Source: Candidatus Dormiibacterota bacterium (lineage in GTDB: Bacteria > Chloroflexota > Dormibacteria > Aeolococcales > Aeolococcaceae). From it: DNA of 64,000 bases. The stretch is from positions 160,001-224,000 of the forward strand of contig OY970355.1 of assembly GCA_963718525.1 (NCBI GenBank). The letters run 5' to 3'. The notes under the pieces are model-generated. The model did no database searches. It saw only the letters and a program-made list of their open reading frames with translations, and was not told the DNA's origin. Below are positions 1 to 16,338 of this stretch, in pieces; position 1 is the first letter of the stretch; every line of letters begins with the position of its first letter. The position numbers and the translations under genes were made by a program.

Positions 1-1614
1 AGCGGACTGCTGCGCGACCATGATGCTCGGATTGAGTGTGCCGCTCATGGTGTCGAAGACCATGACCAGGCGGCCCTTCTTGTCCTGCATCATCGCGCCA
101 AACGACGCGGCCTGGTCACCGGCGAAGGCCAGGTATCCGTGCTGGTATAGGTTCGGAAACGGAATGGAAGAGAAGTGGGTGACCTGGATCTGTCCCCAGA
201 GGATGCCGGCGACGAACGAGGAGCCGCCTGCGCCGCCGTTGTTCACCACCGTGTCCAGTGAGAAGGAGATCAGAGGTTGACCTCCCCCGACGCTGTAGAC
301 CGGCGTGCCCGTGATTCGAGTGTCGATCGTTTCGACGCACTGCACGCAGCCGGGCTCGTCAGCATTGGGTGGAGACGCGTACGTCGGGCTGCCGACGGGC
401 GGATCTGCCAGGTTCCCGCCGAGCGTCTGGTTGCTCGGGTCGTACGCCCACACGACGAACCCATGGCACGCCGTGAAGAAGCAGTCATCCCCGAACGGGT
501 CCCCGAAGATGTTGAACGCGTTGACCAGGTACTGGACACCCGGGTCGTTCGCCGGAGTCGTCTCGGTCTCCACTGGCTGGACCGTGTCGACGGGAACGCT
601 GCCGACCGTGAGGTCTGTGAAGGCGACAGACGTGACCGGGTTGCCGGCCTCCATGGTCGCCTTGTCAGCAAACTGGACTTCAGCGAAGTCGTAGTTGCCG
701 GTTGTGAAGTCGAACATGTTGCCGGTGAACGAGATGGTCTTCCCGCTGAAACCGAACTGCGTGTAGTCCGCGCCGGCGTTGACCGTCCCGCCCAGAGTCA
801 TGTCGAAGTGGTACACGTGCTGAACGCCGGTCGCAGGGTTGACGACCGCGACCCAGTAGATGGAAGTGTTCGGGCAGGATGAGCCCACGCCGAACGCGGC
901 TGCCTCAACTTGGAGCGTCGCCGTCCAGAAGAGGCCGGTGTTGGGGTCGTAAAAGGCGCGCGGGTCACTCATGAACGGCCCAAGCGGGTCGCAATTACCA
1001 GGAAGGGGCGGAACCCCGTACCAGGTCAGGTCGTTGATCGGTCCGATCCACGGCGTGCCGTTCGTCTTGAAGATCTCGTAGGAGGTGTTGACTCCCTGCA
1101 GGACGTACTTCGGCGATGCGGCAAGTGCCATATCCGGCGGCTGGCAGCCACCGAAGTACGGGCAGATGGACGCAGAGTCGGCCATACCCTGGAATTTGAC
1201 GCCGCTGATCGTGCCTGCGCCGGCGCTCGATGCGCCGGCAAGGAGCTGCGTAGCGACCGGGGCGCGGAGTCCGGTCCTTGCCCAACTCTTGCTCGCCAGC
1301 GATCCTCGAACGGCCAGCGTTCGGGGCGCGGCTCTGAGCGCCGCCCCGGCCTTGACAGTGGGCAGATTGAAGATGTTTCTCGTCAGGGCCGGAACGGCGT
1401 AGTTGCCAGCGTGATGAGCCGTGGCCACCGCAGCCGAACCGCGTGCCGCAGCGGCGCCGCCGGCGCTGCTGAACATCGCGACGAGTACGGCGAGCGCGGC
1501 GCCGAGTGCCGGGACGACGCGCGCGCCTCTCGGCCGCGACGCAGCGCCCTGTCGATGACGGGCACCGCCTGCGGAAAGCGCAGGCAGCGTCGACCTATGC
1601 TTGAAGACCCCCAT
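1..1614 (-). CDS. Secreted beta-rich hypothetical protein (partial, runs off left edge; absent from ORF track)
   Basis: ATG at 1614 with AAGGAGG SD upstream; frame open to position 1; hydrophobic signal-like segment ALGAALAVLVAMFSS, then CQPPDMALAASP, SDPRAFYD motifs and paired Cys. Confidence 0.8.
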   Translation of the reverse strand, partial: MGVFKHRSTLPALSAGGARHRQGAASRPRGARVVPALGAALAVLVAMFSSAGGAAAARGSAAVATAHHAGNYAVPALTRNIFNLPTVKAGAALRAAPRTLAVRGSLASKSWARTGLRAPVATQLLAGASSAGAGTISGVKFQGMADSASICPYFGGCQPPDMALAASPKYVLQGVNTSYEIFKTNGTPWIGPINDLTWYGVPPLPGNCDPLGPFMSDPRAFYDPNTGLFWTATLQVEAAAFGVGSSCPNTSIYWVAVVNPATGVQHVYHFDMTLGGTVNAGADYTQFGFSGKTISFTGNMFDFTTGNYDFAEVQFADKATMEAGNPVTSVAFTDLTVGSVPVDTVQPVETETTPANDPGVQYLVNAFNIFGDPFGDDCFFTACHGFVVWAYDPSNQTLGGNLADPPVGSPTYASPPNADEPGCVQCVETIDTRITGTPVYSVGGGQPLISFSLDTVVNNGGAGGSSFVAGILWGQIQVTHFSSIPFPNLYQHGYLAFAGDQAASFGAMMQDKKGRLVMVFDTMSGTLNPSIMVAQQSA

Positions 1615-1778
1615 GGCCCACCTCCTTGGTCGGGCAAAAAGCGCCCGTTTGACCAGATCGATACGGGTGACCCGCACGATCGGTTCGGAGTCATAGTCGT
1701 TCGAGTGGGCCTCTGTCAAGCATTCGGACGAGGTCTGTCCCCCATGGATTGAGCGCGGCGCGTGTCATTCTCGTGGAG

Positions 1779-2291
1779 ATGAGTCGAGCGATGGCGCGAC
1801 CCGCCACTCGAGCGGTTGATGACGCGTTCTTCGAACGCTTCTTCGCCGACACCTGCCAGATGGCGGTTGGGGCGGTCGCGGTGACCACTGGGGACGTCGG
1901 CGCCGCTGAAGACGCCGTCCAGGAGGCGTACCTTCGAGCCCATCGCCGCTGGGCGAGAGTCTCGACACTGGATCGCCCCGACCTTTGGATCGTCAGGATC
2001 GCCACGCGGATTGCGGTCTCCAACTGGCGGCGCCACCGGCGCGAGACTCACCTCAGTAGCGAGTTGCAAGCCGAGGTCGCCGACAGCATCACCCGGATCT
2101 GGACCGAGTGGGGGCTCGAGGCGCTCAGCCCCAAGCAGCGCCGAATGGTGATCCTCCACCACATGCATGGACTTCCCGTCGCCGACGTGGCGAGAGCTGC
2201 GGGGTCCTCGACAGAGACGGTGCGGACTCACCTGAAGCGTGCTCGCGTGCGCCTTCGCACCCGATTCTCCGATGAGGATCGTTATGACTGA
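1779..2291 (+). CDS. ECF RNA polymerase sigma factor (SigE-like)
   Basis: AEDAVQEAYLRAHRRW (region 2); LSPKQRRMVILHH...VA...STETVRTHLKRAR (region 4 HTH). Confidence 0.93.
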   Translation: MSRAMARPATRAVDDAFFERFFADTCQMAVGAVAVTTGDVGAAEDAVQEAYLRAHRRWARVSTLDRPDLWIVRIATRIAVSNWRRHRRETHLSSELQAEVADSITRIWTEWGLEALSPKQRRMVILHHMHGLPVADVARAAGSSTETVRTHLKRARVRLRTRFSDEDRYD

Positions 2292-2979
2292 CTTGAAGCG
2301 CGATCTGGAAGAGGTCGGGAGGGCCGTCTGGCCGGCCCCCGAACAGGTTCGGCGTCGCATGATCGACCGCGGCTCCAGGCGTTGGCGTTCTCGCAGGACC
2401 TTCGGGGCAATCCTGGCCACCGCTGCGATTGCAGCAGTGATCGGGGCCGTTTCTGCCCCAGCGATCATTGCTGTGGAGCACGATCTGACGTCGTTATCCA
2501 CGTCGGCGCACCCTGCGCCTAGTGTCGGCTCCGCCGCGCAAGGATCGAGTGGCCGCTTCACCGGTAGACAGGGTGCGACAGGTCCATCGACACCCACGGC
2601 ATCGGCAGGTCACAATGCGCCGCCGCCGGCGGTCACTGTCTCGCCGAGTCCCACCGTCCACTCGCCCTCGAGCGGCGTGTCACTCGTCCTCACGCAGCAA
2701 AGCAGGGGAACCTACTTTGTGACTCTGGGCTCCACGATCACCGTCACCTTGACCGGCGGCACGAGGAGTGACCCCTGGATGATGCCCACGAGCCGGCCCG
2801 ACCAGATCGTCCATTTCTCGCGCGGTGACCGGTCGAGCGGTGGTGATGCCACAGCGACGTTCGTCGCCACCGCCTTCGGCCAGGCGACGATCCAGGCGTC
2901 CCTCTCCCGCGAGTGCCCACCCTTGTGCGGCGGAGGACCCACGTACATTTGGCACGTCCAGGTCAGCGTCGTCGCGTGA
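2284..2979 (+). CDS. Putative membrane-anchored anti-sigma factor with extracellular Ig-like domain
   Basis: Overlaps sigma stop; short cytoplasmic N-terminus, RRR plus TM helix, Ser/Pro/Thr linker, C-terminal beta domain with CPPLC. Confidence 0.7.
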   Translation: MTDLKRDLEEVGRAVWPAPEQVRRRMIDRGSRRWRSRRTFGAILATAAIAAVIGAVSAPAIIAVEHDLTSLSTSAHPAPSVGSAAQGSSGRFTGRQGATGPSTPTASAGHNAPPPAVTVSPSPTVHSPSSGVSLVLTQQSRGTYFVTLGSTITVTLTGGTRSDPWMMPTSRPDQIVHFSRGDRSSGGDATATFVATAFGQATIQASLSRECPPLCGGGPTYIWHVQVSVVA

Positions 2980-3099
2980 CCCCGGCCGTCTCGTGCCCAG
3001 TGCGTCGAGGGGCTCCTGAGGAGGCGACAGGACGGCAGTCTCGAGGACGTGACTTATCACCGGACTCGAGTTGGCACCTAGACACGGAGGTTAGTTCGA

Positions 3100-3381
3100 A
3101 TGGCCGACACCGACTTTCTTACTGCTGGTCAGGCGGCTGCGCTCATTGGCATTTCGCGATCCACTGTCCGCCGGGCTGTTGCTCAGGGACACCTGCTCGC
3201 GTGGCATACGCCTGGAAAGCATCTCCGTGTCGTCCGCGAAACGTGCCTCGAGTTTGCGCGCGACTTGGGGCGCGTTGACCTCGTGGGCCGCCCGAACGGT
3301 AACCCGTCGCCGGAGTGGCTTCCCGAGCTGGCGGCCGCCCGCAACGAGGTGCTCGGCGGGCATATCCCAGCGAGCACATAG
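3100..3381 (+). CDS. Excisionase-type (HTH_17/MerR-like) DNA-binding protein
   Basis: FLTAGQAAALIGISRSTVRR...G.L.AWHTPGKHLRV motif; GGAGG SD. Confidence 0.8.
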   Translation: MADTDFLTAGQAAALIGISRSTVRRAVAQGHLLAWHTPGKHLRVVRETCLEFARDLGRVDLVGRPNGNPSPEWLPELAAARNEVLGGHIPAST

Positions 3382-3450
3382 GTCGGTGTAGGCGCTCTCG
3401 CCCAGGACCACTTTCTCGTTGAGGTCGAAGCGGTAGCTGTCATCGACTAG
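3310..3450 (+). pseudogene. RidA/YjgF C-terminal remnant in frame with the HTH gene, interrupted by TAG at 3379-3381
   Basis: Reading through gives ARNEVLGGHIPAST*VGVGALAQDHFLVEVEAVAVID*, matching the RidA C-terminal PAST.VGV..L....LVEVEA.A signature. Confidence 0.75.
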
Positions 3451-3552
3451 ACGAAGAGACCCTGTACTGAAGCGACGTTCGGCCGATGAGGCGCATATTG
3501 GGCACCCGCTGTTCGGCTTGCCCCGTGCACCGATGCACCTCCCACTGGTACC

Positions 3553-3582
3553 GCTCGAACGACATTGGCGGATGCTCGCGTG
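3553..3582 (+). repeat. Intergenic cassette-boundary repeat, copy 1
   Basis: GCT cgaacg ACATT GGCGG ATGCT CGCGTG; lies between two convergent stop codons. Confidence 0.8.
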
Positions 3583-3625
3583 GACAACTCAGCCGTCATT
3601 CGGCTGCGAGCGGATTCTGTGGGCG

Positions 3626-4786
3626 TCAGCTGCTGAATATGTAAACGGCGCCGAAACCAGAGTTGGCGTTTGGAGCACCTACGAAGATGGCGCCCGTGGA
3701 CAACGCTACCGACAAGCCAAACTCATCTCCCGCCGCGAAGCCGTGAAGAGCGAGCCTCGGGGCGCTGTCCCATCCGGACCGAGACTTGGCAAACTCATAG
3801 GCCGCACCAGCGGTGAATCCGTTGATGGCGCCGACCCCAACGCGGCTTCCCAATACAGTGACCGAGGCCCCGAACTCGGACGCAGCCGTTCCGTAGACGG
3901 CAAGTGTCGGAGTAGTCGTCCATCCTGCAGCGCCCCTCGTATACACATACGCAGCACCGTCGTTATCGTTGTGAAATATCGCACCCACGACGAGGGTTGT
4001 GGCATCCATAGCTAACGAAGCGCCAAATTGAGAATATGTCGAGTGATCGGCGAGGGTTGCGGTCGGAGTCGTATCCCATCCCGCACTCGACTTGGTGAAG
4101 ATGTAAGCGGCTCCCTGACATGATTTAGCGCACGGAGCACCAACCGCGGCGAAGTTTCCGCTAAGAGCGACGGACATCCCGAAACCCGCAAACCCGGACC
4201 CGATACGGGGGAAGACTGCAGTCGGCGCCGTCTTCCAACCGGTGGAGGTGTTTATGAAGACATACGCTCCGTGACCAATCGTGCCGGCCAGGACGGTGCT
4301 CCCCGAAATCGCGACCGACCACCCGAAGCTCGCGAAGGTCTCAGGTCCTGTAAACACAACGGTCGGGGTCGTTTCCCATCCGCTCGCTGTCTGGGTGTAG
4401 AGATATACGGCCCCGGTACTGGAATTACGACCGGGTGCGCCGATCGCCACCGTCGCTCCCGAAATTGCGACAGATGCCCCGAACTCGTCACCCGCCGTAA
4501 CCCCGTGAAGCACTGCGGTTGGGGTCGTGTTCCATCCAAGCGAGGTCTTCGTGTAGAGATACGCCGCGCCGGCATTCGACCCTGCACCCGCGGCGCCGAT
4601 CACCGCGCTTGTACTTGACACCGCAACTGCGTTCCCAAAGTCGTCGCCAGTGGAGGCCCCGCTCAGCGTTGCGAGCAGGTGCCCAGGAACTGCGGTTGCA
4701 CCGGTCGCCGCGCTGGCAGACTGCGAGCCGCCGATGACGCCCATGGTCATCGACGCGGCAACACCGGCTGCGAGTAGAAACCGCAT
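3626..4786 (-). CDS. Secreted FG-GAP repeat (integrin-alpha-like beta-propeller) protein
   Basis: Signal peptide, then about 7 repeats of FG.SVA.SG....GA.......GA.Y.(Y/F). Confidence 0.92.
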   Translation of the reverse strand: MRFLLAAGVAASMTMGVIGGSQSASAATGATAVPGHLLATLSGASTGDDFGNAVAVSSTSAVIGAAGAGSNAGAAYLYTKTSLGWNTTPTAVLHGVTAGDEFGASVAISGATVAIGAPGRNSSTGAVYLYTQTASGWETTPTVVFTGPETFASFGWSVAISGSTVLAGTIGHGAYVFINTSTGWKTAPTAVFPRIGSGFAGFGMSVALSGNFAAVGAPCAKSCQGAAYIFTKSSAGWDTTPTATLADHSTYSQFGASLAMDATTLVVGAIFHNDNDGAAYVYTRGAAGWTTTPTLAVYGTAASEFGASVTVLGSRVGVGAINGFTAGAAYEFAKSRSGWDSAPRLALHGFAAGDEFGLSVALSTGAIFVGAPNANSGFGAVYIFSS

Positions 4787-4920
4787 GCCCATCCCCCTCA
4801 CTGCTTGAAAGAGGGTTCAGCCTATCAGGTTGCTGGATCGTTTCCTCCCATTGGCATGTCCTCCCCAAGAAGCTCGTGTTGGTAAAGCCGGGTGTCTTAG
4901 TGTCTGGGGTGCTGCTTCGA

Positions 4921-4950
4921 GCTATGAGTACATTCGCGGATGCTGGCGTG
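4921..4950 (+). repeat. Cassette-boundary repeat, copy 2
   Basis: GCT atgagt ACATT CGCGG ATGCT GGCGTG; shares downstream GTCATTCGG with copy 1. Confidence 0.8.
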
Positions 4951-5359
4951 CGTCAGTGTCATTCGGTTCCGCGAACCGGCCCAGCCCCGCGCGGCCTATC
5001 GGAGGCCCGGGCGGCGCCGGTCCAACCGCAGATCGACGTTCTCGATCGGCTCGAGTGGCACATCCGCCGCCGCCGAGGCGAGCAGCGACGGGGGTGCAGG
5101 CGCTAGCGGGGACGGTCGTCCGGAGCCCTCGGCCCGGGAATCCGGGCCTATGTCCCAGGACCTGCCGAAGGATGGAAACTGGCGCGATCTAGCGCGAGCC
5201 ATCCGTAGGATCCGGTGAGCGCCGCGCGATATGCTGTGAACAGCTCCTCGCCGAAGGCGGCGCACAACCGTGTCAGGGTGCGAGAGGAGCGCATAACCCG
5301 TATATGGCATTCGCCAATTCTGACTCTTCTTAGAGTTTGCCGCTGTGTTGCGCTGCAGC

Positions 5360-5389
5360 CATCGAGGATCACTTCGGGATGCTGGCCTG
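5360..5389 (+). repeat. Cassette-boundary repeat, degenerate copy 3
   Basis: CAT cgagga TCACT TCGGG ATGCT GGCCTG. Confidence 0.5.
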
Positions 5390-5521
5390 GGCAGCGCTCC
5401 TCTCCGCAGTCGGTTGCGTTTCTTGCGGAATCAGCCGAAACCAGAGATACGATCCTGCGAGACCCGGACGCTCCCTTCGTCGGCGAGCTGACGTGTAAGA
5501 GTCGACACGTACCGGGGTGCC

Positions 5522-5551
5522 CGTCAAGGGATATTTGCGGACCCTGGCCTG
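5522..5551 (+). repeat. Cassette-boundary repeat, copy 4
   Basis: CGT caaggg ATATT TGCGG ACCCT GGCCTG. Confidence 0.6.
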
Positions 5552-5683
5552 GCCGATTTTCGCTTCCTCGGCCGGTCGCCGATGCGGCCAGTTGGTCACT
5601 CGATTGAGCGGGCCGAACGTGCCACGGCACGGCCTCGACCAAAGCCGCTCAAGCGGCATGGGGCAGCTGGCTGGTAAGGCCTC

Positions 5684-5944
5684 TCAGCCTGCCTTGTGTG
5701 ATCTCGCCGACGGCAGCCGCGTGATCGCGAAGGACAGTAGGAGCAAGAAGGCTGCGGCACCTGCACCAAACAAGGCGCATTGCCAGATCGCAAAGGTGGC
5801 CCTCTCCGAGAGTTTGTCGAGGCAGATCTCTCCCCCAAGGGAGCATTGGGTCGGGTAGGTCACGAGCTGCGCGGTCCACAGACCAATCGCGACCCCGACC
5901 GGCGCCGACGCCACCCGAAGGACAAGCGCGAGCAGGCGCCTCAT
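5684..5944 (-). CDS. Small two-TM membrane protein
   Basis: 86 aa, two hydrophobic helices around a C-x6-C loop; TAGCAT -10 element 6 nt before ATG (leaderless). Confidence 0.7.
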   Translation of the reverse strand: MRRLLALVLRVASAPVGVAIGLWTAQLVTYPTQCSLGGEICLDKLSERATFAIWQCALFGAGAAAFLLLLSFAITRLPSARSHKAG

Positions 5945-6043
5945 GCAGTAATGCTATCGCCGCGGCTCGTCTGCTGAGACCCCGGGGGGGAGTAACCCTG
6001 TGTTTGGGGTTTGCGTCCTCACGGTTTAGTGAGGCTGCGCAGC

Positions 6044-6073
6044 GCTCAGGGTACATTCACGGATGCTCGCCTG
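6044..6073 (+). repeat. Cassette-boundary repeat, copy 5
   Basis: GCT cagggt ACATT CACGG ATGCT CGCCTG. Confidence 0.8.
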
Positions 6074-6186
6074 CGCGAAGGGCGCTTCGCTTCGACTAGG
6101 CTGACAGCCGAGCTAGAAGACTGGAACGAGGCGCAGTCCATGTCGACACCGTCGCTGCGTCACGTTGAAGCGCCACGTCCGCCGTA

Positions 6187-6720
6187 TTACTCCGCAGAGT
6201 TCTCGACAGGGTCGGGTCCGAACGTTTCCTCCATCCATGATCCGGTGCTCACCGATCCAACGCTTATAGACCTTGGGAGAGCTGGGCGGAAGCCAGTCAC
6301 CAGGCAGATAAATACCACGGTCCAGATCACCGAGAGCAAGCGCTCGATCATCAACACCCCGCCAGGTTCGGCAATGACGTTGACGACCGTCGCCGCTGCT
6401 TCCACCCCAAGCGCACTTGCGGTTAGCGCCACGCTCCACTGCATGCGGGCCGAAAGAGCAAGACCCCCCATGGCTGCAAACGCAGCAGCGCAGCTCACGA
6501 TGAACGCAGACGCCGCTTCAACTCGCACGGCGACGGGATAGGCAAACGGCTCGCTCGGAAAGCTGACAAACCCGCTGGGAGGTATGTTCAAGACCTCGCC
6601 GAGAGACACGTTTGCCAGCAGCAGTCCAGAAGTGGCGCTGAGCAGCGAGAATCCAAACACCACGAGGCCGAGCGTCACAGGATCTGGAGTCCACCCGTGA
6701 GTTGGGAATCGCCTCCACAC
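6187..6720 (-). CDS. Hypothetical multi-TM membrane protein
   Basis: About 4 TM helices; GTG start 7 nt after TAGAGT -10 element (6728-6733). Confidence 0.7.
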   Translation of the reverse strand: MWRRFPTHGWTPDPVTLGLVVFGFSLLSATSGLLLANVSLGEVLNIPPSGFVSFPSEPFAYPVAVRVEAASAFIVSCAAAFAAMGGLALSARMQWSVALTASALGVEAAATVVNVIAEPGGVLMIERLLSVIWTVVFICLVTGFRPALPRSISVGSVSTGSWMEETFGPDPVENSAE

Positions 6721-6826
6721 AGCAGGGACTCTAGCGACCAGCGATTCTTCCGTGGGGGATGTCTGGTCGTTACGGAAGCGACTAAACCTGACCTGGGGCG
6801 TCGTTGCCTCGATGACTTCGGCCGTC

Positions 6827-6855
6827 GCTACGAGACATTTACGGATGCTGGCCCG
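6827..6855 (+). repeat. Cassette-boundary repeat, copy 6
   Basis: GCT acgag ACATT TACGG ATGCT GGCCCG. Confidence 0.8.
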
Positions 6856-6958
6856 AGCGAGCAGGTTGCCTCCAGGCCGACAGCGGCGGTTCCGCGAGAC
6901 AGCAGCGTGCACGCGCCACACGCGAGAGGGTGAGTCGTTCTCGCGGCGAGGGCCTGCG

Positions 6959-7441
6959 TCAGTGCCAGAGGAGACGGAGGGTCGCATTCATGCCCACTCG
7001 CGTGCCGCGAAAGCTCACCACCACCATTGCGAGCGCAGCGATTGCCGCTGCAAGTCCGCCACCAACAAAGGGATAGAAGCCGAAGGTGATCGGCGGTGGC
7101 GCTCCGACGCCAGTGAAGCTCCCTGGCCAGGTTACAGCCACGTACGTGGATATCAGGGAAGCTGCCAATGTAACCACGGCGGTGATCCGCCGGCAAATCC
7201 TGGCGAGATGAGTCGCGGAGGCTATCCCCACTACGACGAGAAGCACGAGGACAAGCTGCCCACGGCCACCGGCACTCGCAACGAGACTTTCCGTGAGGGG
7301 CGGCGCAGGGGGGCCGCACACCAGGCAGTCTCCCCAGGTGATCGCAACAAAAGGCAGGAATGCCGCCCAACTCATCACCGCGACCGCGCCCAGACAGACC
7401 GTCGCTGGGACGATGGCGGCCCACGTCGCTCGAGCACGCAC
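6959..7441 (-). CDS. Hypothetical four-TM membrane protein
   Basis: Four hydrophobic helices with a CLVC loop; start uncertain (GTG 7441 or TTG 7489). Confidence 0.7.
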   Translation of the reverse strand: MRARATWAAIVPATVCLGAVAVMSWAAFLPFVAITWGDCLVCGPPAPPLTESLVASAGGRGQLVLVLLVVVGIASATHLARICRRITAVVTLAASLISTYVAVTWPGSFTGVGAPPPITFGFYPFVGGGLAAAIAALAMVVVSFRGTRVGMNATLRLLWH

Positions 7442-7489
7442 CCGTGCATCATCGCGTCCCGTCTTCGGAGGACCAATCGGCGTAGCCAA

Positions 7490-7518
7490 GATGTCACGAC
7501 ATTAGGGATGTCGACCGT
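7490..7518 (+). repeat. Cassette-boundary repeat, degenerate copy 7
   Basis: GAT gtcacg ACATT AGGG ATGTC GACCG (1-nt shorter core). Confidence 0.5.
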
Positions 7519-7692
7519 TTTCGCCTACGACGCGGCGGCCGGCCGCGCACACTTCCGCGCGGGGGCACGCCCATGGGTGACGCGGCAGGGGTCGAGCTTC
7601 CCGGACCGTCAAGAGGCATTGGTGGACCCTGGCCGGGACAAACATCCTGGCGTCGGCAGAGGTAGGGTTCGCCAACTGTAGACTTGGCGTGA

Positions 7693-8298
7693 GTGCATGA
7701 CGACCCTTACGCCACAGGCGTATGCGCCTACTGGCACCTATCCACTCCACCACCAGAGCTGACCGGGGCCCTCTCCGATGGCTGGCTCACGCCACCTGGT
7801 CGGGCGCTCGATATCGGGTGTGGGCTCGGCGTCGAGGCTGCAACATTAAGTGAGGCTGGCTTCCGTGCTGTTGGGATGGATCTGTCATCCGTAGCGCTCA
7901 CACGCGCATCTGCCGCACATCCTGAGGTGTTGTTCGTGGAGGCGGATGTGCGATCGCTTCCCTTCGCGGACAGTCACTTCGCCGTGCTAATTGACCGTGG
8001 CTGCTTTCACTATCTGGAGACGGCAGATCGATCCAGGTACGCGAGCGAAGCCTTTCGGGTTATACGTCCCGGTGGACGCTTCCTGTTGAGGGCATGCCTT
8101 CGAGCGGCAGGTGTCCGCAATGACATCGGAATGGAGACGCTGTTGAGCGTCTTCGCCGCCTGGGACGTCATCGCGGCACGTGAAGCGGACGTACCGAGCG
8201 ATACCCGAACGATGAGGGCGCTGGTGATCCGTCTGCAGCGCCCAGCATCCATAAACACGGCGCATCAGGCCGGGCAGGGAGTCCTCCAGAGACCTTGA
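7693..8298 (+). CDS. Class I SAM-dependent methyltransferase
   Basis: ALDIGCGLG motif I, DLS, ADVRSLPF, DRGCFHYL, IRPGG. Confidence 0.92.
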   Translation: MHDDPYATGVCAYWHLSTPPPELTGALSDGWLTPPGRALDIGCGLGVEAATLSEAGFRAVGMDLSSVALTRASAAHPEVLFVEADVRSLPFADSHFAVLIDRGCFHYLETADRSRYASEAFRVIRPGGRFLLRACLRAAGVRNDIGMETLLSVFAAWDVIAAREADVPSDTRTMRALVIRLQRPASINTAHQAGQGVLQRP

Positions 8299-8312
8299 CG
8301 GAGGCTCGCGTG
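8283..8312 (+). repeat. Cassette-boundary repeat, copy 8 (overlaps methyltransferase stop)
   Basis: CCT ccagag ACCTT GACGG AGGCT CGCGTG, followed by CGCG as in copy 5. Confidence 0.65.
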
Positions 8313-8431
8313 CGCGCCCTGCACCCCCCCGGGGAGCGCGAGCAGCGCAAGGGTGTAATCCTCTCTCGCCAATCAAACTGAACGTCTCCGGCATGTGGCG
8401 TTGTGCCTGATGGCTGGTGAGAGCGCAGGGC

Positions 8432-8956
8432 TCACGCCCGGCGCAGCGTGATCCAGAGATCGGGCTTGACGAGTGCCGCCAGGAGTACTGGCCAGAACCT
8501 CGGACCGTAGCAAGTGAAGCCGGCGACCTCGTCCTGGGCGAGGTCGAACGAACGCTCCGTGCTGCGGTGCCTGCCGGACCCGAGACGCAACGTGTGGTGC
8601 CCGGGAGCTACGGCTACCTCGACTGTCTCCCTGTTGGCGATCGACCCCACCACGATGTCGTCGATCGCGATGTTCCACTGCTCACGCTGCGCACCGATAC
8701 CGATCCCACTCCACGCCCGAACCAACCTCACTGTTGCGTCGCTTGCAGCTTCCTCGTGTGCGCGGTGTGTGTTGCGCTGGTGTTGGCTGACATCGCCTGC
8801 AACAGCCCGGACCTCACCGCCGCCGCCCCGACCTCCCAAGCGCAACGCGAAATAGCCGATGAGCGCCAGCACCACCACGATGCCGATGATGATCTGGACG
8901 ACGTGGGTGCCAGAACCACCAAGGATGCCCGCCACCGACTCGCCGCCGCCAATCAC
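8432..8956 (-). CDS. Hypothetical single-TM protein with beta-sandwich domain
   Basis: TM helix IIIGIVVVLALIGYFAL; I.IDD..VG.I...ET.EV.V.PG.H.L pattern. Confidence 0.72.
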   Translation of the reverse strand: MIGGGESVAGILGGSGTHVVQIIIGIVVVLALIGYFALRLGGRGGGGEVRAVAGDVSQHQRNTHRAHEEAASDATVRLVRAWSGIGIGAQREQWNIAIDDIVVGSIANRETVEVAVAPGHHTLRLGSGRHRSTERSFDLAQDEVAGFTCYGPRFWPVLLAALVKPDLWITLRRA

Positions 8957-9083
8957 GAGGGTGTCCCGCCGATCCGTCTCATCGGCTCACTATGCCACCG
9001 CCAGCAACCTCAGCCTCACCAGCTGCGCAAGGGTTCTCCCGGGTCGCGGAGAACACCGCGACCGGCAGCGTCGAGTGAGATGT

Positions 9084-9557
9084 TCAAGACAGCTCGAGAA
9101 TCGTCTCCTCGATCTCGGCGTTCCGTGCTGGAGCAAAGGACACTTCCGTCGCGATCGGCTGGAAGCCCGCCTTCTGAAGCACTCGGAGCGACCCGGCGTT
9201 GTCGCTCGCAGCACGGGCTCGGATCGGCCGAACCGAGATCTCCTCGAGGAGCATGGCCAGCGCCCGCGTTGCAATCCCTTGCCCCCAACAAGTGCGATCG
9301 ATCCAGTAGGTGACCTCGGTCGTGCCCTCGGAGACGTAGCTGCCTATGGTGCCGACGAGCCGAGAATCGCGGATGATCGCCCGAAGCGTGTTCTCAGTGG
9401 AGGACAAGATCTTGGCCATATGGGCGTCGAAGCCGCTTCGATCGCTCGGGTCTTCAGCTGTGAATGCCGCCATGCGCACTGACTCCGGGTCGCGCATCTC
9501 CTCGAAGATCGCGTCGAGATCTGAAACCTCCACCGGACGAAGCACAACCTGCGACAT
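9084..9557 (-). CDS. GNAT acetyltransferase (RimJ/RimL type)
   Basis: YWIDRTCWGQGIATRAL, DNAGSLRVLQKAGF; AGGAGG SD. Confidence 0.93.
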   Translation of the reverse strand: MSQVVLRPVEVSDLDAIFEEMRDPESVRMAAFTAEDPSDRSGFDAHMAKILSSTENTLRAIIRDSRLVGTIGSYVSEGTTEVTYWIDRTCWGQGIATRALAMLLEEISVRPIRARAASDNAGSLRVLQKAGFQPIATEVSFAPARNAEIEETILELS

Positions 9558-9610
9558 GCGGACGGTCCTCCTGGTTCCGACACTTCCGAGCGACTCACCA
9601 ACCCTTGTCG

Positions 9611-10216
9611 TCACTGGGACCGCGCAAGCAAGAAATCGAACGTGGTCCGAATGAATTCATCCATTGGAGCGCGATCACTGATCAACTTCGCGCGCGTTGC
9701 CGCGCCCTCGTAGCCGTCGACGAGATAACGCCCGAGTGCATCGACATCTGCGCCCTCGTCGAGCTCCCCCGCTTCCTGCGCCTGAACGAGCGCCTTGCTG
9801 ACTGCCGCGCTCCAATTGTCGAGGGCTTCGGTCACGGCGTTCGTAATCTGGGTGCTGTGTGGAGCGAGCTCGGTCGCGAAGTTGCCGAGCAAGCAGCCCC
9901 TTCGGACACCGCAGCTGACGTTCTGCTCGATGACCGCTTCGAAATACCTTCGGATCCGCTCGAGTGTGGTGCCATCGCCTGAGAAGATGTCGCTCGCGCC
10001 GGCCTCGACCACGTAGGCGCCGACGAGGCGGCTGTAGGCGTGCACGACCTCGATCCCCAGCGCCTCCTTGCTCGCAAAGTGGTTGTAGAAGGATCCCTTC
10101 GGTACGCCGGCCGCCTCGACGATGTCCTGGACGCTGGAGCCGTTGAACCCGCGGGTGTGGAACACGTCCACGGCGCTCTCGATGAGCTGATCCCTGACGC
10201 TGGCTCGCGGCACCAC
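9611..10216 (-). CDS. TetR/AcrR family regulator (NemR/LmrA-like)
   Basis: GFNGSSVQDIVEAAGVPKGSFYNHFASKE HTH; RGCLLGN. Confidence 0.95.
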   Translation of the reverse strand: MVPRASVRDQLIESAVDVFHTRGFNGSSVQDIVEAAGVPKGSFYNHFASKEALGIEVVHAYSRLVGAYVVEAGASDIFSGDGTTLERIRRYFEAVIEQNVSCGVRRGCLLGNFATELAPHSTQITNAVTEALDNWSAAVSKALVQAQEAGELDEGADVDALGRYLVDGYEGAATRAKLISDRAPMDEFIRTTFDFLLARSQ

Positions 10217-10237
10217 CCCACTATCTCAGGTTTGGAT

Positions 10238-10255
10238 AAGATGACCGGTCATATT
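10238..10255. promoter_or_regulatory. Probable TetR operator
   Basis: Perfect palindrome ATGACCGGTCAT (10241-10252) between divergent tetR and tautomerase. Confidence 0.7.
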
Positions 10256-10314
10256 GCCGATCGGGACATCCCATCCGGCTCCAGCGCCATTCATCGACCG
10301 CAAGGAGGTCTCCC

Positions 10315-10743
10315 ATGCCGATGATCGACGTCTTCGCCTCAGAAGGCACCTTCAAGGACAAGCACCTGCTCGCCCAGGATCTCGCCAGGGCGGTCATGCG
10401 CTGGGAGAAGGTGCCCGAGATCCCCTTGTTCTTCGAGAACACCGCCGCGTTCATCCACGACCTGCCTGCTGCGGCGATCTCGAATGCGGCCGGCGACAGT
10501 AATTACGTCCGCGTCCAGGTGCTCACGCCGGTCCACGTCCTTGATCGCGAGAAGCAACTCGGCGTCGTCAAGGAGCTCACGGAGATCGTCGTCGCAGCCG
10601 CCGGCGACCCGAGCCTGACCGATCGTACGTGGGTATTGATCACGGAATCGCCGGAGGGCGGGTGGGGCATCGACGGTCATGCCAACACCAGCGACGACAT
10701 CGTTGCTTCGGCACGGGCGGCGCTGCAGGCGAAGGCAGGCTGA
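10315..10743 (+). CDS. Tautomerase family protein (4-oxalocrotonate tautomerase-like)
   Basis: N-terminal MPMIDV (catalytic Pro1), TWVLITESPEGGWGI; AAGGAGG SD. Confidence 0.88.
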   Translation: MPMIDVFASEGTFKDKHLLAQDLARAVMRWEKVPEIPLFFENTAAFIHDLPAAAISNAAGDSNYVRVQVLTPVHVLDREKQLGVVKELTEIVVAAAGDPSLTDRTWVLITESPEGGWGIDGHANTSDDIVASARAALQAKAG

Positions 10744-10753
10744 GCCACCGTGA

Positions 10754-12601
10754 TCAACTCGGGGTGGATCCCACATACACGCCGTCCAGATCAAGCGCGG
10801 TTCCGCCTTCGCACGCAAGCCGCAGCGAGCCCGCTCGATCGTCCCCCGACGCCACCACGACGGTGCTCGCCGCGGGGATCCACTGCCCATTGATGGCGAG
10901 GCTGTCATGGGCCGCGGCGGCGGGCGTTGCAAACTGCATGGTGACGGTGCTGCCAATCGCGACAGCGATGTCCGTCGTCACTCCATCGCAGCTCATCATC
11001 TTTGGTGCGGGGATGAGTGATACGGATCCCGCCGCGGGCTCGAACGGTGTGGCCGTCGCGGCGATCCCTGCACTGTCAACGCTGGCGTAGCTGGAACCGA
11101 GGTGGAACAGATCCTGGCTCACCTCGCCGAACCACGCCCAGCGTTCCAGCACCGCACGCGCCGTGGATGAGAAGCGGACGTTCTGTGGAGCGGTGTAAAG
11201 ATACGTGTACCCCTGCGCCGGCAGGGCATCCAGGAGCCGGGTCGTGACGATGATGGGGAGGAGCATCATCCCGCGTCGCCGTGCGTAGTACGGTACCGCC
11301 GGCGACCACGTCAGACCGTCGAACACAATCAGGTCTTGCGGCTTCGTGCCTGCGTCGATCTCGCGTGCCTGCGGTAACACGTTCTCGGGATCGGCCACGT
11401 GGTTTGTGTAGATGGGCGCAAGGAAGTCGCGCTGAGCAACCAGTGCAGAACCCAACGATGCGAGGATGGCGAGCACGGCCACGACCCGCACCGGGGTAGG
11501 ACGCCAGTAGCGGATGACCCCGTCGAGCGAGTAGCCCAGGACAGCCGCAACGGCGGGAGTCACCGCAGCAAGGTAGTACTGCTGGACGACATAGAGATTG
11601 AAGAACACAAGCACCGGCAGGGCGCCGGCCAGGAGGATGCCGATCCACACCGCCCGCCGCTCACGGAGCCACGCAATGCCGCAGAGGATCGCGAATGCCC
11701 ACAGCGGCAGCCCGGTCACGAGGGTGTCGAATGGGTGAATGACGTCGTACCAGGCGTGGACGCTGAAGCGCTGAGCGATGGTGCCGAAGTTCCAGATGAA
11801 CAGTGCCTCGCTGGTGAGCCAGCTGGTGGCAGGGTTCGACGCCTTGATGTCGTCGGCGTGGTGCGTCCAGAGCACGCACGCAATCAGTGGAATCAGGAAC
11901 AGCACCAGGGAGACATTCAGTCGATCACGAAGCCAGATCCGCAGGGGCGGCCTCGGTCCGCGAGACCAATACAGCAACAGTGGCACCATCCAGAAGATCG
12001 CGCTGGTCACCTTGACGACCATCGCGAGCGTGCCGAGAACAATGGCGAGCGCTGCAAAACGCTTGTGACGTTTGTCGATCCAGATCATCCCGGCCCAGAC
12101 GTACGCGACCGAGAAGGCCGTCGCCATGTATTCGATCATCGACGACCGGCTCCACCAGATATTGAACGGTGACAGCAGGAAGACAAGGAGCGCGATCACC
12201 GCGGCAGTCCGCGTCGAGAGGTGGCGAACCAGCCCCCACAGCGCGAACGCAGTTGCCATGAAACAGATCAGCCCGCTCGCTCGCAGCGCAATGTCGGTGG
12301 CCACGCCCAGGTTCATGACGAGAGCAGCCATGGCCTGGAACAGCGGGAACTCGAACGGGACCTGCCATGGGCTGCCCGACACCGGGAGCTGAGGGTTGAG
12401 CAGATTGATCCCCTGCTGGTGATAGATGAGAGCCGGATACGCCGTCTCGGTCTGCCGAAACGACGAGATCGCGGTCAACGGCTGGCTCAGATGCGGCAGG
12501 CGTATGAGGAGTCCGATCGCCAGGAGTCCCAGCACGATTCCTGCCTCTTGGAGACCGGGATCGGCCCAGACGCTCCGACCCCTTCCTGCGAATCGCTGCA
12601 T
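10754..12601 (-). CDS. GT-C fold (GT39/ArnT-like) membrane glycosyltransferase
   Basis: FRQTETA, EFPLFQ, SP...WWSRSSMIE, many TM helices; TACAAT 7 nt before ATG. Confidence 0.85.
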   Translation of the reverse strand: MQRFAGRGRSVWADPGLQEAGIVLGLLAIGLLIRLPHLSQPLTAISSFRQTETAYPALIYHQQGINLLNPQLPVSGSPWQVPFEFPLFQAMAALVMNLGVATDIALRASGLICFMATAFALWGLVRHLSTRTAAVIALLVFLLSPFNIWWSRSSMIEYMATAFSVAYVWAGMIWIDKRHKRFAALAIVLGTLAMVVKVTSAIFWMVPLLLYWSRGPRPPLRIWLRDRLNVSLVLFLIPLIACVLWTHHADDIKASNPATSWLTSEALFIWNFGTIAQRFSVHAWYDVIHPFDTLVTGLPLWAFAILCGIAWLRERRAVWIGILLAGALPVLVFFNLYVVQQYYLAAVTPAVAAVLGYSLDGVIRYWRPTPVRVVAVLAILASLGSALVAQRDFLAPIYTNHVADPENVLPQAREIDAGTKPQDLIVFDGLTWSPAVPYYARRRGMMLLPIIVTTRLLDALPAQGYTYLYTAPQNVRFSSTARAVLERWAWFGEVSQDLFHLGSSYASVDSAGIAATATPFEPAAGSVSLIPAPKMMSCDGVTTDIAVAIGSTVTMQFATPAAAAHDSLAINGQWIPAASTVVVASGDDRAGSLRLACEGGTALDLDGVYVGSTPS

Positions 12602-12729
12602 GGGGCGGATTGTATGGACTTTTGCCCTGCGCGACGATCATCGTTTGCGTAGTAGGGCTGTGTCCGCCCTTCAGCTGAAACTGGACCCGAACACGAGTTT
12701 GCCCCACTCCTATGAGGTACGCCCCCACC

Positions 12730-13074
12730 ATGGCTAAGCCCGAGCGCGAATTCTTCGCCACCAACACCGTCGACTTCACCCCCTGCGCCGGCGACGTCGT
12801 GACTCTCACTGAATCCATCCTTGCCGCCGATCCTGAAACCGGCGTCGCCACCTCGCTGATGCGCTTCGCGCCCGGTGCCGACACCACGCCCAACGGAGTC
12901 CAGACACACGAGTTCTGGGAAGAGGTGTACATCGTCGAGGGCTCGATCACCGATCTGCGGTTGAATGAAACCTTCACCGCCGGTATGTACGCCTGCCGTC
13001 CGCCGGGCATGCCCCACGGACCATGGCGTAGCGATGACGGGTGTCTGACCTTCCAGGTGCGCTACCGGGCTTGA
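12730..13074 (+). CDS. Cupin domain protein (ChrR-like cupin_7)
   Basis: HEFWEEVYIVEG and YACRPPGMPHGPW motifs. Confidence 0.9.
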   Translation: MAKPEREFFATNTVDFTPCAGDVVTLTESILAADPETGVATSLMRFAPGADTTPNGVQTHEFWEEVYIVEGSITDLRLNETFTAGMYACRPPGMPHGPWRSDDGCLTFQVRYRA

Positions 13075-13119
13075 TGGTTCCAGCTGGCCCGACGGTCGGA
13101 CGGTGCGCGCGCAGCGTAT

Positions 13120-13640
13120 CTATGCCTCGAGCTGCGGGGCAACTTCACGCTCGCGTCGCCCCGCCGGCTCTGGATCGCCAGCGTCACGTTCGAGCGCCTG
13201 CCACGCTTCCCCTCGCACGATGTACCCCACGTTTGCGTGGCTGACTCCAAATGCTGATGCGATGGAACGGTAAGTGACTCCATAGCGCGCCATGCGCCTG
13301 ATCGATAACACGTCAATGACGGTGAGCTTCGCATTGGGATGGCGTTCGCCGCGGTATGTGCGGCGATTGAGCACCTGCTGCTCCCAAGTCGTCCAACGAC
13401 AGTTGCCCGGTTCGTAATTGCCGTCGTTGTTGATCCGATCCAGCGTCAGGTGGTCAGGACACGACCCCATGTCGGCGAGGAAGGCCTCGAACCGATGCCA
13501 GCGACGGCAATGGTGATTCCGCGACCGCCATAGCGCACCCAGTCGGCGCTCGAGGGATTCGTGCAGCGCCTCAACATGTCCCTCCAGGCGTGGTATGTGC
13601 GCGTTCCGCTGCCTGCTGCTTGTCCGTGACTGCGCGACAT
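13120..13640 (-). pseudogene. Phage-type HNH endonuclease-like gene with 1-nt frameshift at about 13509
   Basis: Frame A: TYHAWRDMLRRCTNP....YGGRGITI; frame B: CRRWHRFEAFLADMG..P...TLDRINNDGNYEPGNCRW, then GE.HPNAKL and HTH; joined by restoring one T (ATT TGC). Confidence 0.85.
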
Positions 13641-13872
13641 ACACGAATCGAACCAGGACGTCGGGCACGTTTCGCGGACTGTCGAGCGCCGGGGCAGGAA
13701 GGTTCGCCGCCCAGGGTCACAGTCCGCGTGGGTTCACGACGATGGCCCCTTGTGTGATGCGAGCCAAGACGACCCCGGCCTCCTCATCGCGAGACGGGTT
13801 TTCGACGCCGTACGCGGTCCCTGCAACCGATCATGTGCACATTAACGCCCGGGGACACATAGACTCCGAGCT

Positions 13873-14820
13873 GTGCAGCACTTGCGACGGCGGCCTCTCG
13901 GTGCCTCGGGGATCGAGGTCTCGACGCTTGCACTCGGATCCTGGCGCACGTACGAGCGGATTCCGCGAGAGCAGGGCATCGGCGTCATGCGTGCAGCGCG
14001 AGAGCGCGGGATCATCTTCTTCGACGATGCCCGCTACGACGACGAAAGCGGAGGAGCGCCGATCCGGACCGGATATTCAGAGGTCTTGTTCGGGGAGCTG
14101 TTTCGCGCCACAGGATGGAGACGCGACGAGGTCGTCGTCGCCAACAAGCTCTGGTGGGAGTTTTGGCCTGATCAGTCAGCTGCCCAGGAGCTCGACGACT
14201 CCCTGGGTCGAATGGGCTTTGACTACATCGATCTCGCGTATTCCTGGGCGACGCCCGGCGGGCCGCCCATCGAGACGATCGTCACCTCCATCGGAGCGTT
14301 GATCACATCCGGAAAACTGCGCGCGTGGGGCACCGGAAATTGGCAGCCGGCGGATCACGAAAGGGCAGCTGGACTTGCCCTTGAACAGGGGATACCACCG
14401 CCGTGTGCCGCACAGCTACCCTACAACCTCGGCGTCCGTGACTATGTCGAGTCTCCGGCTGCGGTTCAGGCTCTCGACCACTCAGGTGCTGCTGTTGTCG
14501 CCTCCTTCGTCCTTCACGGAGGCGTGCTCACCGGCAAGTACGCAAAGCACCTCGCGTCTGGCCGCATGGCCGACGAGCTCGAGGATCCAGAACTGCAGCC
14601 GCTCCTGCAGGCTGCCAGTGATCTGCGCACACTCGCCACCAAGCTCGACTCGACGCCCGCCATGCTCGCGATCGCATTCGCGATGGCCAATGAACGCGTG
14701 GCGACAGTGCTCTTCGGCGCCACAACCCCCGAGCAGGTCGCTGAAAACGTTCGAGCCATCGAGCTTCTAGATCGCCTTGACGCCGCAAGTCTTGCCGAGC
14801 TGCGGGCGATTGGCACTTGA
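13873..14820 (+). CDS. Aldo/keto reductase (Kv-beta-like)
   Basis: LGASGIEVSTLALGSW, FDDARY, SLGRMGFDYIDL, GATTPEQVAEN. Confidence 0.93.
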   Translation: MQHLRRRPLGASGIEVSTLALGSWRTYERIPREQGIGVMRAARERGIIFFDDARYDDESGGAPIRTGYSEVLFGELFRATGWRRDEVVVANKLWWEFWPDQSAAQELDDSLGRMGFDYIDLAYSWATPGGPPIETIVTSIGALITSGKLRAWGTGNWQPADHERAAGLALEQGIPPPCAAQLPYNLGVRDYVESPAAVQALDHSGAAVVASFVLHGGVLTGKYAKHLASGRMADELEDPELQPLLQAASDLRTLATKLDSTPAMLAIAFAMANERVATVLFGATTPEQVAENVRAIELLDRLDAASLAELRAIGT

Positions 14821-15127
14821 TGAGTTGATTTAGAACCGACCTACTCGAGACGCGCTGACGCAGACAGTCGGTTGCGCCGTGACTCGGCTCCGATGCGCTA
14901 CATCGCTCGGATCTTCACCTCACTTCCCGCAGCTTTTGGCGCCAGTCACCACCACACGGATCAGTGCCTCCGGCACGGTGCTCCCGGTGCCCCCCCGACA
15001 GGAATCGTACCGGCGACCAACTTGCCACCCGGCGCGCCGCAATCGCTGGCAACGATGCCGGACCGGAGACTCAAGCTCACCGCCATACCGCGCGGCGGAT
15101 GGCAGCGCTTCTTTCAAGTATTCGTAC

Positions 15128-15202
15128 TGGAGCGGGAGACGGGGCTCGAACCCGCAACTTCAACCTTGGGAAGGTTGTACTCTACCATTGAGTTACTCCC
15201 GC
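15128..15202 (-). tRNA. tRNA-Gly (anticodon CCC)
   Basis: 75-nt cloverleaf GCGGGAG...CAACC TTCCCAA GGTTG...GGTTCGAGCCC...CTCCCGC TCCA with encoded CCA. Confidence 0.98.
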
Positions 15203-15222
15203 ACGGGATTTGATCTCGGTTA

Positions 15223-16329: not shown

Positions 16330-16338
16330 AGTGCCTGT

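Follow-up and report, generated by a model that had tools for sequence, protein, structure and literature searches.

In a 64,000-nucleotide stretch of a Candidatus Dormibacterota genome (assembly GCA_963718525.1, contig OY970355.1, positions 160,001 to 224,000 of the forward strand; hereafter the window), a direct repeat divides a series of mostly single genes into what appear to be mobile cassettes. The repeat is probably the strong half of an attachment site of about 50 bp for a large serine recombinase (LSR), and the cassettes may be shuttled by a small element that encodes such an LSR together with a rolling-circle replication initiator (Rep). In a wider picture that we put forward tentatively, the arrays may represent a serine-recombinase counterpart of integrons across a genus of Candidatus Dormibacterota, with an LSR-Rep mini-replicon of 2.6-3.3 kb shuttling among arrays headed by an attB-type site and with a shared pool of hundreds of cassettes. 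An earlier note on the window had proposed that sites for site-specific recombination delimit mobile cassettes of one gene each, in an array that is no integron. That proposal is borne out by breakpoints between genomes that fall on the motif; overall, what the note had observed was confirmed in part, and its interpretation was supported in part.

Copies of the repeat in the window and across genomes

The window belongs to a genome (G000, G000:C1:160001-224000) that consists of a single contig of 3.34 Mb with 66% G+C. Other genomes are labeled G### and array or LSR loci L###; the comparison covered a first draw of 24 genomes of the same genus, 16 genomes of a sister family and a full genus set of 42 genomes including G000. 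Motif positions are counted from an ACATT anchor, and copies were scored with a position weight matrix (PWM) derived from 29 copies. For this matrix, 2000 random 50-bp windows drawn from 20-63 kb of the window gave a 99th percentile of -1.3 and a maximum of 4.7.

Seven of the eight copies listed in the earlier note (3553, 4921, 5360, 5522, 6044, 6827 and 8283) scored 20.8-48.0 bits, whereas the one at 7490 scored -20.4, and a copy at 7616 (19.3 bits) had been missed. Four positions that had been offered as weaker copies (3466, 13666, 14892 and 15331) scored -24.5, -7.0, -22.2 and -13.1 bits, inside the null distribution. The repeat is also longer than the roughly 30 bp first assigned to it, with a conserved site of about 50 bp from -8 to +41. 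As had been claimed, every copy in the window lies on the + strand and the 20-64 kb region is free of copies, with none of at least 6 bits between 8.4 and 64 kb. The core ACATTNNCGGATGCT occurs four times exactly in the window and five times at up to two mismatches, against 1.2 expected; five occurrences were reached in 2 of 100 shuffles.

The motif is clustered in the genome and not evenly spread. The main array comprises 31 copies of at least 18 bits over 34 kb (genome 134,557-168,292), 31 of 31 on the + strand; it starts 25 kb to the left of the window, which holds its right end with the last 8 of the 31 copies. No copy of at least 12 bits was found to the right of the last site (anchor 8292 of the window) before genome position 731,409. 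A second cluster of five copies lies at 2,747,517-2,750,062, and single copies are found at 1,876,878 and 2,204,312. Arrays occupy several intergenic loci per genome. Across all fetched arrays, the median distance between sites was 666 bp (quartiles 509 and 1021, 301 intervals), and one array contained up to 31 sites in G000 and about 35 in G016:C12.

At up to two mismatches, the pattern was found in 22 of 24 genomes of the same genus, with a maximum of 82 copies in one genome. In the sister family it was found in 2 of 16 genomes with one or two matches each, and a reversed-pattern control gave 0-2 matches per genome. When one genome of each prokaryotic species was scanned for the exact pattern, 94 stretches were found; among the 80 listed, 68 were titled as Candidatus Dormibacterota or Dormibacteria metagenome-assembled genomes (MAGs), and 12 bore other titles with one match each.

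The locus of the main array differs in length between relatives. The distance from the PolX gene to tRNA-Gly(CCC) is 5-7 kb, without sites, in G051, G006, G019 and G003, and 41 kb in G000 (genome 132,800-175,300, which takes in 8300-15300 of the window). A native gene at genome 148,686-149,203 is the neighbor of PolX in the relatives and lies in the middle of the array in G000.

Anatomy of the site

A sequence logo of 349 sites showed conservation from -8 to +41, with T at 0.97 at position +19 and G at 0.98 at +20. On either side of this TG lie a strong left half (-8 to +18, 27 bp) and a weak right half (+21 to +41, 21 bp). The consensus of the P-type half is CTCnrGkACATTnnCGGAyvCTsGCs. When the two halves were read outward from the TG, the inner 11 columns agreed best at shift 0 (0.63; next 0.17), and the outer 12 columns agreed best with the right half moved 5 bp inward (0.55; all other shifts at most 0.16).

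The repeat has the form of an LSR site, namely 40-50 bp with an imperfect dyad around a 2-bp crossover dinucleotide, and its two halves differ as P-type and B-type halves do, sharing an inner motif while the outer motif lies 5 bp nearer the center in the B-type half. In the parts of Rutherford et al. 2013 that deal with site structure (PMC3783163), an attP half-site has 25 bp and the zinc-ribbon motif of attB is moved 5 bp centerward. Because the differences between the half-sites fit this rule, the sites of the array read as P-TG-B', that is, attR-type. Judged by their sequence, the array sites have the P-type/B-type signature of an LSR attR site.

An origin of the motif from a tRNA or tmRNA gene was considered and rejected: the best of 30 shuffled controls scored just as high as the best local alignment to 48 ARAGORN genes (13). 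Within the tmRNA gene of G000 (genome 3,335,831), the motif has a weak 12-bit match, in sense orientation and 118-132 nt from the 3' end; we judged it to be a chance match.

Exchange of cassettes and position of the breakpoints

We compared positions 150,000-157,600 of G000 with the 41 other genomes of the genus by BLAST, and homology blocks started and ended at site positions. In G012, the block q2632-3256 directly precedes the block q192-776, an order unlike that of G000. Comparing cassette content and order between related genomes, as the earlier note had suggested, thus revealed the same modules beside different neighbors, with breakpoints in gene content on the motif.

Flanks were compared for 410 unique sites from 146 loci, with shared contexts collapsed. 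Forty pairs of sites had only the left flank in common, 35 only the right flank, and three had both. Within the motif, positions -5, +5/+6 and +12 varied with the left cassette, +15 and +18 were mostly linked to the left, and positions from +21 onward were linked to the right. The breakpoints placed by sequence comparison in the 40 + 35 one-sided pairs accordingly switch between +18 and +21. Because linkage flips from left to right there, the junction is placed at the invariant TG (+19/+20) and not in the TNNCGG "spacer". The quasi-symmetric RCAT-N6-ATGY core, once suspected to be the crossover, is not supported in this role, since its variable NN and the ATG/ACC triplet go with the left cassette and the junction falls 19-21 nt past ACATT.

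Cassette DNA of G000 is 92-96% identical to that of G003 or G008, whereas the corresponding values for the flanking PolX gene are 84% and 72%. The higher identity of the cassettes indicates recent exchange. As far as such comparisons can tell, the intervals are mobile cassettes swapped among related soil bacteria, each of about 0.4-1.5 kb and usually with one gene in either orientation, starting with what reads as a B' half and ending with a P half.

The array of G000 contains members of the Pfam families HAD, ECF sigma, MST/DinB, glyoxalase, GNAT, DinB_2, FG-GAP and methyltransferase. In a sample of 150 of 188 cassettes, the longest open reading frame (ORF) had a Pfam match in 35. The sampled cargo includes several GNAT and several HAD proteins, the immunity proteins WapI, Imm74 and Imm26, DUF4265, methyltransferases, zf-C4_ClpX, L-PSP, RibD_C and MFS. 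Among the 35 Pfam-supported ORFs, 20 ran along the motif direction and 15 against it, and the distances from motif to start codon varied.

The stretch was present in four public soil runs from one study (0.84-0.98 of words), one of which may have been used to build the assembly. Seven contig joints from soil runs, seen in contigs only and with short sides of 21-29 letters, were not counted as evidence: four of the seven have their start at precisely site+20 and their end 3-8 nt short of the ACATT of another site, and a fifth ends 1 nt before the ACATT of a site, with a start that is not at a site.

A large serine recombinase at array ends in relatives

The three resolvase-family genes of G000 were used as tblastn queries against the array loci, and homologues of roughly 470 aa were found in several of them. 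The LSR (467 aa) has Resolvase, Recombinase and Zn_ribbon_recom domains and a coiled-coil stretch, and its sequence matches in PDB are serine integrases. Its convergent neighbor is a REP_ORF2-G2P rolling-circle initiator gene. The LSR and Rep genes sit at array ends in relatives, on an element of 2.6-3.3 kb. Clustering of ORFs of at least 150 aa from 44 array loci had returned no recombinase common to the array flanks, but this approach failed to bring the LSRs into its top list.

In loci L021, L019, L098, L157, L151, L152, L153 and L158, the LSR start codon is overlapped by a reverse-oriented variant of the site or lies no more than 50 bp from it. Read in gene sense it is ...CAGGATACGCTAATGTACCTTGATG, with the start codon inside the site or at most 50 bp downstream. 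The LSR of L019 is a pseudogene, L158 is an independent metagenome contig, and L057 is the same stretch as L157 and was counted once. These LSR-proximal sites are B-TG-P', or attL-type; in L158, the left half scored 16.0 as B-type against -33.7 as P-type, and the right half 16.1 as P-type against -0.9 as B-type. P-type sites in the gene direction follow 2.55-3.3 kb downstream of the LSR in six of the eight loci, one contig ends there, and L153 has none. L157 holds an intact LSR element with attL and 14 sites of at least 12 bits downstream. A cognate LSR beside an att site was found in relatives only, and G000 holds enzyme-less arrays only. Both the architecture of the sites and the genes adjacent to them in relatives favor an LSR over a tyrosine recombinase or Xer.

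Related enzymes with other sites were also observed. A 467-aa LSR of G000 (genome 2,467,621-2,469,024) has upstream of it ...CGCTAATATGACC, which resembles a P' half-site with a different inner part; the two may be a paralogous enzyme/site pair. In L154 and L155 (G017:C8 and G045:C7), LSRs that are 46-47% identical to the attL-linked clade have ...GCGCTAATGTAT... directly upstream of their start codons, a related and distinct P'-like half-site; the range is 46-53% for the LSR clades of L153-L155, which have P' variants beside them. In addition, G015:C77:55-2571 contains four spaced variant sites, ACATTGCC[GT][CG]ACGCTSGGGTG, which may belong to a second site family with its own enzyme.

Polarity of the arrays

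Each TG of the + strand of G000 (195,732 positions) was scored for B-type halves on both sides. The top three attB-type (B-TG-B') scores were at 2,746,635, 134,340 and 149,249, and in each case the P-type site that opens an array segment follows 217-944 bp to the right. The single copy at 2,204,312 likewise has a B-type left half some 700 bp to its "left". Among 40 loci of other genomes, attB-type sites at or above the 99.9th percentile occurred in 13 of 21 complete 2.5-kb left flanks and in 1 of 24 right flanks (Fisher p = 4e-5). The arrays are polar in this respect, with an attB-type site at the head of enzyme-less arrays and the attL-bearing LSR-Rep element at the same end in relatives.

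Proposed mechanism and alternative explanations

As part of the best overall explanation, an array likely has a single attB-type site at its head, behind which attR-type sites are lined up in tandem and in one orientation. From the anatomy of the site, the breakpoints at the TG, the LSR genes adjacent to arrays in relatives and the attB-type heads, we infer which LSR acts and how cassettes would be picked up and deposited. The LSR-Rep element would integrate at the head of an array by attP x attB recombination. It would exit by recombination of attL with any downstream attR, carrying the proximal cassette or cassettes off as a circle. At another attB, the element would integrate and then exit via attL and its own first attR, leaving the cassettes behind. 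Such a cycle, built from canonical LSR reactions only, would explain why every cassette begins with B' and ends with P.

Several observations weigh against this shuttle. Canonical LSRs do not recombine attR with attR, yet neighboring cassettes are rarely conserved (3 versus 75 pairs), a rarity that fits the pick-up model only if transfers mostly involve a single cassette. The syntenic array-free loci of G051, G006, G019 and G003 have no attB-type site, and the model therefore leaves the seeding of arrays unexplained. When G000 was scored for attL- and attP-type sites, none was found; the LSR-proximal P' sequence was not found there either, and two LSRs of this genome are only 43-45% identical to the attL-linked clade, with no motif beside them. 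Although almost all genomes of the genus have arrays, no more than 6 of the 42 contain the P' sequence. Neither an attP (P-TG-P') junction nor a circle was detected; the single metagenome match was another attL (L158), and viral contigs had none. The central TG is lost in two of the eight sites of the window (CG at 6854-6855 and GG at 7635-7636). The matrices used to type the half-sites were built from these same sites, and all genomes are incomplete MAGs with a completeness of 61-92%, which makes absences weak evidence.

An alternative within the same enzyme family is that cassettes move singly by direct attR x attR recombination, in the manner of Ccr recombinases and without pick-up by an LSR-Rep element; we regard it as possible and somewhat doubtful. 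The excess of one-sided pairs (40 + 35 against three with both flanks) fits moves of single cassettes, and short "empty" units of 69-162 bp also count in favor of this alternative. However, the structural model in Rutherford et al. 2013 (PMC3783163), in the sections on site pairing, disfavors pairing of like with like and describes attL and attR as auto-inhibited, and direct exchange leaves both the attB-type heads and the restriction of the LSR to that end of the array unexplained.

It is unlikely that the arrays are fossil scars, in which the attR sites remain from successive LSR-element integrations, the cassettes are no longer mobile, and diversity reflects old events, deletion and homologous recombination. 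The failure to find a cognate LSR in G000, the mutated TG in two of the window's eight sites and the many weak sites (18-25 bits) speak for such remains. They are difficult to reconcile with cassette DNA that is more similar than PolX between G000 and G003 or G008, with sharp breakpoints at the TG in 75 pairs, and with the intact LSR element and attL beside 14 sites in L157.

A tyrosine-recombinase system of integron or Xer/dif type, acting on the ACAT-N6-ATGC core and served by the tRNA-Gly integrase or the host Xer proteins, is largely refuted and very improbable. In its favor, a Phage_integrase protein is encoded beside tRNA-Gly, 7 kb to the right of the array, and small arrays in L007, L017, L019 and L020 have integrases of phage type at a distance of 1-4 kb. 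Against it, integrases keep no constant position or orientation with respect to the arrays, and the crossover lies outside the N6 spacer. The eight full-length PF00589 proteins of G000 scored 22-76 bits on the integron-integrase model TIGR02249, far below the cut-off of 265, which leaves the genome without a candidate for IntI, the tyrosine recombinase marked by an integron-specific insertion. Folds of single-stranded DNA gave z-scores of -0.19 to +0.05 against -0.49 for controls (40 sites, both strands, two windows), with no hairpin signal of the attC type; attC sites are imperfect hairpins with R''/L''-L'/R' boxes whose structure is conserved more than their sequence. The site logo is a contiguous sequence block without RYYYAAC/GTTRRRY boxes, and the cassette genes are not co-oriented as in integrons. 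The claim that the array is not an integron is upheld. Xer/dif systems (pdif, IMEX) use a dif-like 11-6-11 site that crosses over in its 6-bp spacer, and sites in pdif modules alternate in orientation; here, the markers in and next to the TNNCGG "spacer" stay with the left cassette and the sites share one orientation. A palindrome scan for dif found no dif-like site resembling the motif, and the GC skew was too weak to place the terminus.

None of the tyrosine recombinases tracks the arrays, and each was rejected as the array enzyme. The tyrosine recombinase of the window (15400-16557), to which the array had previously been linked, has 63-80% orthologues in 7 of 24 genomes of the same genus, and its homologue in G051 lies beside tRNA-Gly at a locus free of sites. 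A XerA-like protein of 318 aa is patchy, multi-copy and also present in the sister family; an integrase at genome 2,205,410 has 87-89% orthologues in 6 of 24 genomes; and a divergent 352-aa tyrosine recombinase has matches in 3 of 24. For two of these last three, the homologues in the sister family rest partly on the unpublished genomes G027 and G036. No HUH Y1 transposase (PF01797) was found in G000.

Finally, a regulatory role of the motif (promoter, operator or terminator) is highly improbable; in this reading, cassettes would be shuffled incidentally when short repeats undergo homologous recombination, a process reportedly proposed for PeSL elements of T4-type phages. In its favor, the copies lie between genes, ahead of many that are encoded on the minus strand, and the reverse strand of the motif, as read off the sequence, contains a -10-like TGTACC stretch. 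Against it, the motif stands at varying distances from start codons of genes in both orientations (20 to 15), overlaps the stop codons of + strand genes, has breakpoints limited to +13..+21 and not spread across the 28 identical bases, and would have no rationale for a weak right half with a 5-bp-shifted outer motif or for an attL-type site over LSR start codons.

Features of the window

The left part of the window (1..3582, + strand) is the right part of a multi-gene interval of 6.1 kb between sites at genome 157,422 and 163,562. It contains, among other ORFs, a gene for a secreted-looking protein of 635 aa on the minus strand (1-1719, extending left of the window) and an ECF sigma factor gene (1749-2291). 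No recombinase domain was found among the ORFs of this interval, and the 635-aa protein lacked features of a recombinase, with no homologue of it in any other array locus.

The interval ends with an attR-type site at 3554..3603 (anchor ACATT at 3562, TG at 3581-3582, PWM 38.7); this site and all those described below lie on the + strand. Its left half scored 32.4 as P-type against 2.1 as B-type, and its right half 7.9 as B-type against -47.4 as P-type. This site is a paralogue of the one at genome 155,438, with the left flank in common and homology that stops after the TG. The next cassette (3583..4950) carries an FG-GAP repeat protein gene on the minus strand (ORF 3626-4801; Pfam FG-GAP_2, E 7e-45) and is flanked by the sites with anchors 3562 and 4930. 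The latter site spans 4922..4971 (TG 4949-4950, PWM 42.1), and its left half scored 31.9 as P-type.

A 439-bp cassette (4951..5389) with only short ORFs without a family match follows, with a weak attR-type site at 5361..5410 (anchor 5369, TG 5388-5389, PWM 20.8). The subsequent unit is an "empty" cassette of 162 bp between two sites (5390..5551); comparably short site-to-site units of 69-140 bp are present in L013, L026, L031 and L039. The rule of one gene per interval, as first described, holds roughly; this interval (5369-5531) contains no ORF of at least 50 aa. It ends with an attR-type site with an ACCCT variant at 5523..5572 (anchor 5531, TG 5550-5551, PWM 31.9).

The cassette at 5552..6073 contains an 86-aa ORF on the minus strand (5684-5944) without a family match and is closed by the best copy in the window, an attR-type site at 6045..6094 (anchor 6053, TG 6072-6073, PWM 48.0) with a left half scoring 40.0 as P-type. 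Two cassettes with minus-strand ORFs follow, one at 6074..6855 (ORF 6187-6720) without a Pfam match and one at 6856..7636 (ORF 6959-7489) without a family match. The attR-type site between them (6827..6876, anchor 6835, PWM 35.7) has CG at its center (6854-6855) instead of TG, and the weak site after the second (7608..7657, anchor 7616, PWM 19.3) has GG (7635-7636). Under the serine-recombinase reading, these would be dead sites that fuse adjacent cassettes.

The last cassette (7637..8312) encodes a SAM-dependent methyltransferase on the + strand (ORF 7693-8298; Pfam Methyltransf_11 and Methyltransf_25, E ~2e-18), whose stop codon lies inside the site of its own cassette. Pfam thus matched both the FG-GAP and the methyltransferase assignments made earlier from the translations. 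The array ends with an attR-type site at 8284..8333 (anchor 8292, TG 8311-8312, PWM 34.1). A search of window positions 1-20000 against Rfam returned tRNA-Gly and one sub-threshold match, and nothing more.

Comparison with known systems

A literature search at the level of listings and abstracts found no description of serine-recombinase cassette arrays or of integron-like arrays in Dormibacter. The arrays are set here beside the systems that they resemble in part.

The sites resemble those of phage and ICE serine integrases (phiC31, Bxb1, A118/LI, TP901-1), with 40-50 bp, a non-palindromic central dinucleotide and an integrase gene beside attL; the P-type and B-type half-sites with a 5-bp shift of the outer (zinc-ribbon) motif also correspond to the account of site structure in PMC3783163. 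Whereas these integrases serve one element with one attB, here tens of tandem attR-type sites each close a tiny cargo module, and the enzyme is carried by a Rep replicon of 2.6-3.3 kb and not by a phage.

The arrangement also resembles SCC/SCCmec of staphylococci, in which the LSR enzyme Ccr acts on tandem cassettes between repeated att sites in one orientation, and in which most cassettes have no recombinase of their own and are served by one in a neighboring unit, according to the portions of PMC11470126 on cassette structure. The same portions describe how Ccr serine recombinases excise tandem SCC-like cassettes without a recombinase, singly or joined (PMC11470126). SCC cassettes measure 17-48 kb, whereas here cassettes have 0.4-1.5 kb and mostly one gene. 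In contrast to the single attB in rlmH (orfX), the integration site for CcrAB or CcrC, several intergenic loci are occupied per genome, the recombinase is paired with a rolling-circle Rep gene on an element of 2.6-3.3 kb, and the host belongs to an uncultured soil phylum. The resemblance to SCC is one of function and not of membership, with the LSRs set beside Ccr by function alone.

The ssrA-linked islands of Dehalococcoides, from a phylum said to be related, are another example of tandem elements with short direct repeats between them and serine recombinases. These islands are multi-gene, each carries its own recombinase, and their repeat derives from the end of the tmRNA gene, whereas the motif described here matches no tRNA or tmRNA end.

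To our knowledge, no platform other than integrons has been described for storing and shuffling single-gene cassettes in long arrays; integrons use a tyrosine recombinase and folded single-stranded sites. Like integrons and the integrase-less CALIN, the arrays are long and in one orientation, with compact single-gene cassettes that bear the recombination site at one of their ends. The crossover falls at the outer border of a conserved block, many arrays lack an enzyme, and GNAT, HAD, glyoxalase, methyltransferase and immunity-protein families are prominent among the cargo. Unlike integrons, there is no IntI, the enzyme would be a serine and not a tyrosine recombinase, and the sites are duplex and defined by sequence, without a hairpin or RYYYAAC/GTTRRRY. 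Because the genes are found in both orientations (20 to 15), no common promoter logic applies here.

An IS110-family element of about 1.33 kb (DEDD_Tnp_IS110 and Transposase_20) was observed inserted in a cassette site between GGTA and CATT. Seven copies were found (among them L011:6487-7560, L031:12513-13520, L040:7792-8865, L029:11370-12443 and L029:13717-14859), with the same insertion point and orientation in 5 of 5 copies with readable ends. An IS110-family element at a cassette site is the counterpart of the IS1111-attC elements of integrons. A separate element of 2.69 kb, with terminal inverted repeats, 7-bp target duplications and an IS110-like gene, occurs in G000 in two copies that are 95% identical (2,241,344-2,244,037 and 2,469,338-2,472,031) and is not inserted in the motif.

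If true, the proposed system would be a case of convergent evolution of cassette platforms, would extend the principle of SCC to cassettes of a single gene and to arrays of tens of cassettes, and would account for much of the accessory-gene flux in these soil bacteria. It would also supply hundreds of typed P/B half-site variants for one serine integrase family, which would aid the study and engineering of integrase specificity. Taken together, the arrays look like tandem cassettes mobilized by an LSR, an already-known principle, at a scale and with a cargo that are integron-like; an integron-like outcome has apparently been reached with an LSR and plain duplex sites, in a phylum without cultured members.

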